A stretch of DNA of 5,365 bases from a virus (Duplodnaviria; Heunggongvirae; Uroviricota; Caudoviricetes), in IMG/VR virus record IMGVR_UViG_2602041568_000011. One strand, given 5' to 3'. Below, one piece after another: positions 949-1,025 of this stretch. Under the pieces are notes generated by a model that worked only from the letters and a program-made list of their open reading frames with translations, did not search any database and was not told the origin of the DNA. Every line of letters begins with the position of its first letter. The first letter of the stretch is position 1. Position numbers and translations under genes: made by a program.

Positions 949-1025
949 TGGACCGCCACCGGGGACTCGAACCTCGCACACTCAACTTAAAGGGTTGACG
1001 CTCTTTCCTGATGAGCTAGTGGCGG
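949..1025 (-). tRNA. Atypical tRNA-like gene, 77 nt, anticodon loop CCUUUAA (UUU anticodon, Lys-type decoding if functional) with C33 in place of the near-universal U33
   Basis: Sense sequence CCGCCACTAGCTCATCAGGAAAGAGCGTCAACCCTTTAAGTTGAGTGTGCGAGGTTCGAGTCCCCGGTGGCGGTCCA. The cloverleaf folds with a 7-bp acceptor stem starting C1-G72, D-stem GCTC/GAGC, a perfect 5-bp anticodon stem TCAAC/GTTGA, T-loop TTCGAGT and encoded CCA. It has one A-C mismatch in the T-stem and a U discriminator. Isotype assignment is uncertain. Confidence 0.6.

Follow-up and report, generated by a model that had tools for sequence, protein, structure and literature searches.

A prophage tRNA gene with a UUU anticodon and C33, apparently recoded from tRNA-Arg(UCG), is a candidate nuclease-insensitive tRNA-Lys of Escherichia coli lambda-like phages

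The lysine tRNA with anticodon UUU, tRNA-Lys(UUU), is a frequent target of antiviral nucleases, among them PrrC, RloC, PARIS AriB and a bacterial Schlafen that likewise cuts this tRNA. Phage tRNA-Lys variants rescue phages from PARIS (PMC11464382) and from PrrC170 (PMC11555353), and to date the demonstrations of escape by variant tRNA come from virulent phages rich in tRNAs, T5 among them. The gene compared here with these systems lies at 949..1025 on the minus strand of a 5,365-nt stretch of viral DNA (IMG/VR record IMGVR_UViG_2602041568_000011), referred to below as the window, which is the late-regulatory region of an Escherichia coli lambda-like prophage. It carries the anticodon UUU in a loop with C at position 33, and sequence comparison identifies it as a recoded arginine tRNA of the Shiga toxin (Stx) phage family and not as a relative of tRNA-Lys. 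Our preferred reading, held tentatively and at somewhat less than even confidence, is that it may serve as a conditionally useful, nuclease-insensitive spare tRNA-Lys.

In the classical mapping PrrC cuts 5' of the wobble base, so that position 33 is the 5' side of the scissile bond. One study places the PrrC cut between U35 and U36 instead, and gives t6A37 (N6-threonylcarbamoyladenosine at position 37) as a positive PrrC determinant, after Bacusmo 2018 (PMC12409363). A universal determinant of t6A is U36-A37-A38 (PMC9654439), and C33 is an anti-determinant: E. coli TsaBCDE was unable to add t6A37 to a U33C tRNA, as tested with the E. coli initiator tRNA (PMC8887486), and the block by C33 holds for yeast KEOPS as well as for TsaBCDE (PMC8887486, PMC13492127). 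[quoted passage not shown] Among eukaryotic tRNAs, the initiator tRNA-Met of multicellular organisms and yeast tRNA-Leu(GAG) carry C33 and work, and in the latter C33 is compatible with decoding (PMC13492127); neither is related in sequence to the window gene. In a 2023 survey of phage tRNAs, the tRNA-Lys(UUU) of coliphages showed no loop mutation that would serve as an explanation. In a limited literature search we found no description of an ANN-decoding phage, prophage or bacterial tRNA with C33, nor of a prophage tRNA recoded from Arg to Lys.

Direct reading of the window gives for 949..1025 a 77-nt cloverleaf with an encoded CCA end, the RNA of which is CCGCCAC UA GCUC AUCAGGAAA GAGC G UCAAC CCUUUAA GUUGA GUGUG CGAGG UUCGAGU CCCCG GUGGCGG U CCA. 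ARAGORN calls it tRNA-Lys(TTT), and the Rfam model RF00005 matches it at 44.4 bits (E = 2.9e-07, gathering score 29) as the second in transcription order of four minus-strand tRNA genes, all recovered by that model; the three neighbours score 64.9–73.8 bits. The complete cloverleaf, the encoded CCA and the second place in the cluster, as the original prediction had them, are thus borne out. So is its anticodon loop, CCUUUAA, in which C32 is base 993, C33 base 992, the UUU anticodon bases 991–989, A37 base 988 and A38 base 987. The host tRNA-Lys loop is CUUUUAA, and C33, standing in place of the canonical U33 of the U-turn, is the sole difference between the two loops. Other anticodon registers and an enlarged loop were ruled out, the 5-bp stem and 7-nt loop being unambiguous. 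The stems of 7, 4, 5 and 5 pairs contain 20 standard pairs out of 21, the only mismatch being A51 (base 974) against C63 (base 962) in the T-stem, and U8, A14, G18-G19, U54-U55-C56 and A58 are all kept. The acceptor stem begins with C1-G72 and the discriminator base is U73. ARAGORN, which had been proposed as a check, returned a tRNA-Lys, and the Rfam covariance model accepts the gene as a tRNA; identical copies in RefSeq are likewise labelled tRNA-Lys, with no pseudogene flag, and the window copy shows neither a lost cloverleaf or core nor rejection by a predictor. The gene is a genuine tRNA-like gene, far beyond chance.

The isotype suggested by the anticodon is not matched by descent. The original prediction had proposed a tRNA-Lys-type decoder, and while the UUU anticodon of that isoacceptor is present, the gene is identical to K-12 lysT at 47 of 79 positions and to T5 tRNA-Lys at 44 of 79, and U73 replaces the A73 of lysine tRNAs. 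Its near relative is the tRNA-Arg(UCG) gene of Stx phage 2851, with 65 identities in 77 positions. That gene, annotated 'codon recognized: CGA' and presumably the one named argN in 2851 and 933W-type phages (we take ileZ and argO to be further names of Stx-phage tRNA genes), occupies the same slot directly after tRNA-Ile2. The two share C1-G72, U73, a D loop containing A20, the A51xC63 T arm and the encoded CCA. They differ in their loops, CUUCGAA for reading CGA (Arg) in the phage gene and CCUUUAA, with UUU for AAA (Lys), in the window. The acceptor-stem start and the T-stem mismatch had been offered as oddities of this one gene; both are there, but C1-G72, like U73, is a family trait and the mismatch is common to the phage 2851 gene, most family members having a paired 51-63. 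Since the Arg gene scores 43.0 bits with Rfam and has C1-G72 as well, the low score and the unusual first pair are family traits and not gene-specific decay.

Membership in this second-slot family also follows from position and alignment. The window gene lies directly 3' of tRNA-Ile2(CAU), downstream of Q and upstream of the lysis/stx genes, and it shares C1-G72, U73 and the D arm with a family whose 47 distinct members align gap-free. The family holds genes with anticodon UCG, one with UCU, and a UUU clade to which the window gene belongs. Across the 47 distinct 77-nt sequences 96.1% of cells are standard-paired, compared with 28.8–53.2% when partners are slid by 1–3 columns. Of the 12 differences between the window gene and the phage 2851 gene, half fall in the 17-nt anticodon arm (G30A, U33C, C35U, G36U, C40U and G43A). 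The transition from Arg to Lys involved three fully compensatory switches, 7-66 from UA to CG, 27-43 from CG to UA and 30-40 from GC to AU, with a fourth, 4-69 from CG through UG to UA, inside the Lys clade; all are one-time events of the past that 12 sequences have inherited. The six substitutions of the transition all restore pairing, and a lineage already dead on acquiring UUU is hard to reconcile with this.

By function the gene would resemble the PARIS-resistant tRNA-Lys of T5, but it is no member of that lineage or of the tRNA-Lys family; by descent it belongs to the Arg(UCG) family of lambda-like prophages, though without the UCG anticodon. It and the T5 gene are viral tRNAs with anticodon UUU that depart from host tRNA-Lys at the AriB determinants, T5 having C16, A39 and C41 and the window gene C16, G39 and U41. 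The T5 gene is a true tRNA-Lys relative (60 of 78 positions identical to lysT) with U33, A73 and a clean cloverleaf, none of which holds for the window gene. T5 is virulent and its resistance and rescue are experimental (PMC11464382, PMC12409363), whereas the window gene sits in a temperate prophage and is known here from its sequence. Host lysT has the same anticodon loop save for position 33, and it differs in G1-C72, A73, the D loop and the anticodon stem.

C33 is a derived, fixed state of the common Lys allele. Each of the 105 copies sampled for this allele has it (103 with the loop CCUUUAA and two with UCUUUAA), so the comparison of homologues proposed in the original prediction gave fixation and not random decay at this position. 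All Arg-type members have U33, in loops CUUCGAA or UUUCGAA. A rare second Lys allele, here called the clean allele (locus L129), has the loop CUUUUAU with U33 and U38, a perfect T-stem with G51-C63, U4-A69 and an Rfam score of 53.2 bits. It is identical to the window gene at 70 of 77 positions, shares its anticodon, anticodon stem, D arm, C1-G72 and U73, and also follows tRNA-Ile2, in a prophage context that differs in having no Thr or Gly genes. Of 5426 complete E. coli genomes 11–20 have it, under the annotation tRNA-Lys, and it is present in two metagenome contigs as well. An allele with both U33 and A38 on the Lys stem was not found in viral or metagenome contigs, the U33 scans of these yielding nothing beyond the U33/U38 allele and a single unrelated tRNA array; a further scan of species genomes (one genome per species, two matches) was not U33-specific and does not separate the alleles. 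Of the species-representative genomes, those of E. coli and Shigella flexneri alone have the Lys-type anticodon arm. With the Arg genes as outgroup, parsimony gives CUUUUAA as the ancestral Lys loop, from which one lineage changed position 33 and the other position 38.

These two changes bear on t6A. The window gene retains U36-A37-A38 and combines it with the bacterial anti-determinant C33, and the clean allele, with U38, lacks the A38 determinant, so both Lys alleles are predicted to be poor substrates for t6A. With two lineages of about four substitutions each, both hitting t6A determinants would be expected by chance at about 4% under neutrality, which is suggestive only.

The preferred reading begins with a tRNA-Arg(UCG) gene behind tRNA-Ile2 in the leader between Q and the lysis genes, in one lineage of which the anticodon became UUU while the anticodon and acceptor stems changed in compensation. 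The window copy would share a transcript with its neighbours, begun at the promoter-like site (1140..1112) or produced by late transcription under Q antitermination, and would be released by RNase P and 3' trimming. Charging would fall to lysyl-tRNA synthetase (LysRS), because UUU is the dominant identity element for that enzyme, and the product would be a spare decoder of AAA, probably an inefficient one. Its selective value may lie in differing from host tRNA-Lys(UUU) wherever defence nucleases directed at tRNA-Lys read their substrate. The window gene has UAAGUU at positions 36–41 and C16/A17 in the D loop, and so is without all three mapped AriB determinants (U16, U39 and A41), independently of C33; C16/A17, G39, U40 and U41 here replace the U16, U39, C40 and A41 that AriB needs. 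For PrrC, A37 should stay without t6A because C33 is an anti-determinant of TsaBCDE, and t6A promotes PrrC cleavage. The idea of escape from PrrC-type nucleases, raised in the original prediction, thereby acquires a route from the sequence and the literature (C33 blocks t6A37, and t6A helps PrrC), and it is a predicted one. The benefit would be conditional, arising in lytic growth in hosts with tRNA-Lys-directed nucleases, which would explain decay of the gene in domesticated prophages.

A stronger form of this proposal makes C33 itself adaptive: an evasion switch by which a recoded Lys tRNA became unmodifiable at A37 (through C33 here and U38 in the sister lineage), so that in lytic growth Lys decoding would not be silenced by tRNA-Lys-directed nucleases relying on t6A37 or on the anticodon arm of the host tRNA (PrrC-type, PARIS AriB). 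We consider this doubtful, although not negligible.

Several observations weigh against the preferred reading as a whole or in its stronger form. A tRNA-Lys(UUU) that has lost t6A37 should, for that reason, be a weaker decoder. The PARIS-resistant tRNA-Lys of T5 keeps U33, and C33 is not a general shield, since a U33C stem-loop is cut normally by the K. lactis gamma-toxin (PMC2275089). Nor would the cluster be PARIS-proof as a whole, because its tRNA-Thr(UGU) is identical to that of the host and AriB would still cut it. The T-stem mismatch is a further burden: in the nearest-neighbour model A51xC63 costs about 6.9 kcal/mol and leaves the cloverleaf of the window allele 2.7 kcal/mol above the predicted minimum-energy fold, and the affected T-stem pair contacts elongation factor Tu. 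Reversion of A51 to G in silico makes the cloverleaf the minimum-energy fold again. Because the minimum-energy folds of host lysT and T5 tRNA-Lys likewise miss a perfect cloverleaf, such folds are uninformative on tRNA-likeness as such, and the cost of the cloverleaf was used instead. The remaining difficulties come from the distribution of the gene. It is carried by 798 of the 5426 complete E. coli genomes (about 15%), of which only 279 have copies at least 99% identical, 474 having copies at 95–99% and 45 at 90–95%. In the sampled 97.4% class there is a 1-nt deletion in the D-stem (PPompW type; O111 strain, locus L234, and PPompW phage records), in the sampled 96.1% class C4U, U8C and C11U occur together, and a copy at 90.9% carries seven changes, G18A among them. 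These derived copies are unannotated in RefSeq while the adjoining Ile, Thr, Gly or Arg genes are annotated and intact, and they give no match to the Rfam tRNA model even at E <= 1. Many sister copies are dead.

The slot as a whole shows the same tendency. IMG/VR pattern scans yielded 219 loci with the tRNA-Ile2 gene, a sample partly biased by the first pattern used, and the arrangements included Ile-Lys(UUU)-Thr-Gly (about 87 loci), Ile-Arg(UCG)-Arg(UCU) (about 68), Ile, an unrecognisable second slot and Arg(UCU) (about 29), and Ile-Lys(UUU)-Arg(UCU) (13). The second slot is hypervariable and strewn with dead variants (for example at L215, L141, L090, L135 and L150), which also counts against a maintained function, and the adjoining tRNA-Ile2 gene is nearly invariant. 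Among the forms seen in it are many Arg variants with T-stem or acceptor mismatches, internal deletions, a dead form in about 25 copies whose anticodon arm has been exchanged for a longer one and whose T loop is ruined, a chimera of Arg(UCG) and Arg(UCU), and one change of anticodon from UCG to UCU.

From these facts the most serious rival follows, a real possibility that we hold at less than even and only a little below the preferred reading: the gene may be a decaying relic, a once-functional Lys tRNA of which the clean allele would show the earlier form. Its first disabling hits would be U33C and G51A, and it would persist only by hitch-hiking between the useful tRNA-Ile2 gene and the other tRNAs, with C33 fixed by descent and not by selection. 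The Rfam scores form a series from 53.2 bits in the clean allele through 44.4 in the window to undetectable in the further-derived copies; most carriers have the further-damaged, RefSeq-unannotated forms with intact neighbours; the mismatch destabilises the cloverleaf; plainly dead variants of the slot are many across prophages; and tRNA-Lys(UUU) is already encoded by at least five host genes. The invariance of C33 carries little weight here because diversity within the allele is low. Against a relic, however, the window copy keeps all other conserved nucleotides and all but one of its stem pairs, and the T arm in question is also that of the phage 2851 tRNA-Arg(UCG). Both Lys alleles are independently altered at a t6A determinant, an allele with the full set not having been found in the contigs scanned, and it is the window allele, not the clean one, that has spread across mosaic phages and into 15% of the complete genomes. 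Two deposited phage genomes contain it unchanged, as do mosaic prophages whose flanks are unrelated. The gene is also no more variable than its Thr and Gly neighbours: in 79 four-tRNA loci S/len is 0.104 for the Lys gene, compared with 0.158 for Thr and 0.133 for Gly, the flanks of these loci being mosaic and mostly non-homologous (S/len about 1). In the 20 loci with homologous flanks, where variation is too low for a comparison with the neutral rate, 0 of 77 sites vary in the Lys gene, 19 of 400 in the flanks and 4 of 76 in the Thr gene. The choice posed in the original prediction between a decaying pseudo-tRNA and a decoder with an altered loop is still live on both sides, with predictors accepting the window copy and failing its derived sisters (L232, L233, L234 and L003).

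It is improbable that the gene is simply an extra supply of tRNA-Lys for AAA and AAG codons in A-rich late genes, with C33 and the stem differences neutral. Every tRNA found in the slot system reads an A-ending codon (AUA, ACA, GGA, CGA and AGA beside AAA), and the cluster lies in a late-operon leader, as such a role would have it. AAA is not rare in E. coli, however, and to a host with at least five tRNA-Lys(UUU) genes an inefficient copy with C33 and a mismatch would add little; codon compensation is also unsupported in the phage tRNA sets of PMC10264068.

Altered frameshifting could be a side effect if the tRNA evades modification, by changing slippage at a phage A AAA AAG tail-chaperone site. 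That tuning is the purpose of the gene, a hypomodified C33 tRNA-Lys setting the ratio of short to fusion tail chaperone, seems very improbable. The anticodon-loop modifications of tRNA-Lys(UUU) do affect slippage at A AAA AAG, as in dnaX, and in the cytolethal distending toxin I (CDT-I) prophage of E. coli 20Ec-P-124 (L238), which has an identical cluster, the chaperone gene ends in GTT AAA AAA AAG TAG (18663–18677). In this tail chaperone the T frame is reached by a −1 shift, and both codons of the A AAA AAG site are read by tRNA-Lys(UUU). This rests on one prophage, though; the mosaic phages that have the cluster differ in their structural modules, and host tRNA-Lys would be in large excess. 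Least probable of all is a non-decoding role, as a processing spacer of the polycistronic tRNA transcript, where the 1–3 nt between genes means that each cloverleaf sets its neighbour's processing sites, or as a decoy for tRNA-Lys-directed nucleases, competition by overexpressed viral tRNAs having been raised as a possibility (PMC12409363), since clusters with a deleted or ruined second slot keep intact annotated neighbours and a decoy should keep the nuclease recognition elements, of which those mapped for AriB are gone.

Two further candidates were examined. Dependence of lysogeny on the tRNA, with the phage copy making up for a host tRNA-Lys gene disrupted by integration (PMC10865867), was rejected: the neighbour of the prophage with an identical cluster is a tRNA-Ser gene, and lys genes number at least five in the host. 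For a phage with its own tRNA-Lys nuclease and an immune tRNA, no nuclease candidate was found in the annotated 49-kb region of the same prophage.

If the preferred reading is true, escape by variant tRNA would extend from virulent phages to temperate ones, the lambda-like prophages that about 15% of complete E. coli genomes contain. The recoding of an Arg tRNA to Lys inside a phage would be new, as would an escape principle in which one loop base, C33, prevents the host t6A37 on which a nuclease relies. The C33 allele, the U33/U38 allele and the host tRNA provide natural controls. If the gene is not functional, it is a well-documented case of stepwise tRNA decay in prophages and a caution that RefSeq 'tRNA-Lys' calls in prophages may be non-functional.

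The window gene is preceded in the cluster by tRNA-Ile2, with a CAU anticodon of the lysidine type, at 1027..1102 (minus strand; ARAGORN Met/Ile2(CAT) at 1102..1027, Rfam, and tRNA-Ile in RefSeq), which is identical to the tRNA-Ile of Stx phage 2851 at 76 of 76 positions. It is followed on the same strand, according to ARAGORN and sequence comparison, by tRNA-Thr(UGU) at 871..946 and tRNA-Gly(UCC) at 793..867, which are 100% identical to host thrU and glyT, respectively. These last two genes are split by a 3-nt spacer, while in the host operon thrU-tyrU-glyT-thrT tyrU stands between them; the identity together with this arrangement points to recent capture from the host or to gene conversion. 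PARIS AriB has tRNA-Thr(UGU) as its second prime target, and the cleavable site UAAUCA is kept in the window copy.

On the minus strand the order of genes is DUF968 protein, RusA, Q, the four tRNAs and a P21-type holin, from Pfam matches and the RefSeq annotation of a 99.6% identical prophage. The antitermination protein Q gene at 1297..1992 (minus strand; Pfam PF06323, E = 8.6e-92, and the annotation of the homologous prophage) places the tRNA cluster in the late-operon leader. A consensus scan detected a sigma-70-like promoter (TTGCAA, 17-nt spacer, TATTAT) at 1112..1140 on the minus strand, ending 9 nt before the first tRNA; by this consensus match the cluster may have a promoter of its own. 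Next comes a GC-rich stretch, GCTGCGCCC, similar to the discriminator of promoters for stable RNAs under stringent control. At 1210..1233, in the interval from Q to the tRNAs, the scan and the sequence also show a GC-rich hairpin with A and T runs on its flanks, similar to an intrinsic terminator. By analogy with lambda we take it to stand in the position of tR', in which case Q-antiterminated late transcription would read into the tRNAs. A second promoter-like site (TTGCAA, 17-nt spacer, TATATT), located at Q's 3' end (1285..1313, minus strand), could be a pR'-type late promoter. The two promoter-like sites bracket the hairpin, so the cluster could be expressed independently and also by Q-dependent late transcription.

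Elsewhere in the window, a perfect pentanucleotide repeat (GCTGG, 8.4 copies) at 4742–4783 falls exactly between the minus-strand open reading frames 5203..4718 and 4709..4317, which match TRM5/TYW2-type and FkbM methyltransferase models. This appears to be one methyltransferase gene split by a slippage-prone repeat, and is a candidate phase-variable prophage gene. In a closely related prophage the early region carries a gene for the epoxyqueuosine reductase QueH, a tRNA-modification enzyme, and a GNAT acetyltransferase gene lies between the lysis and terminase genes (QueH and GNAT sites at 9540–10205 of L001 and 27978–28463 of L238); the window counterpart of the QueH neighbourhood has the split methyltransferase instead. 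Downstream of the clean allele, at a distance of 600–1800 nt, are four tandem copies of the small RNA STnc100 (Rfam, 76.6–131.9 bits; 2265–3380 of L129), and in phage 2851 a single copy lies behind the stx genes as well (792–1003 of L002).

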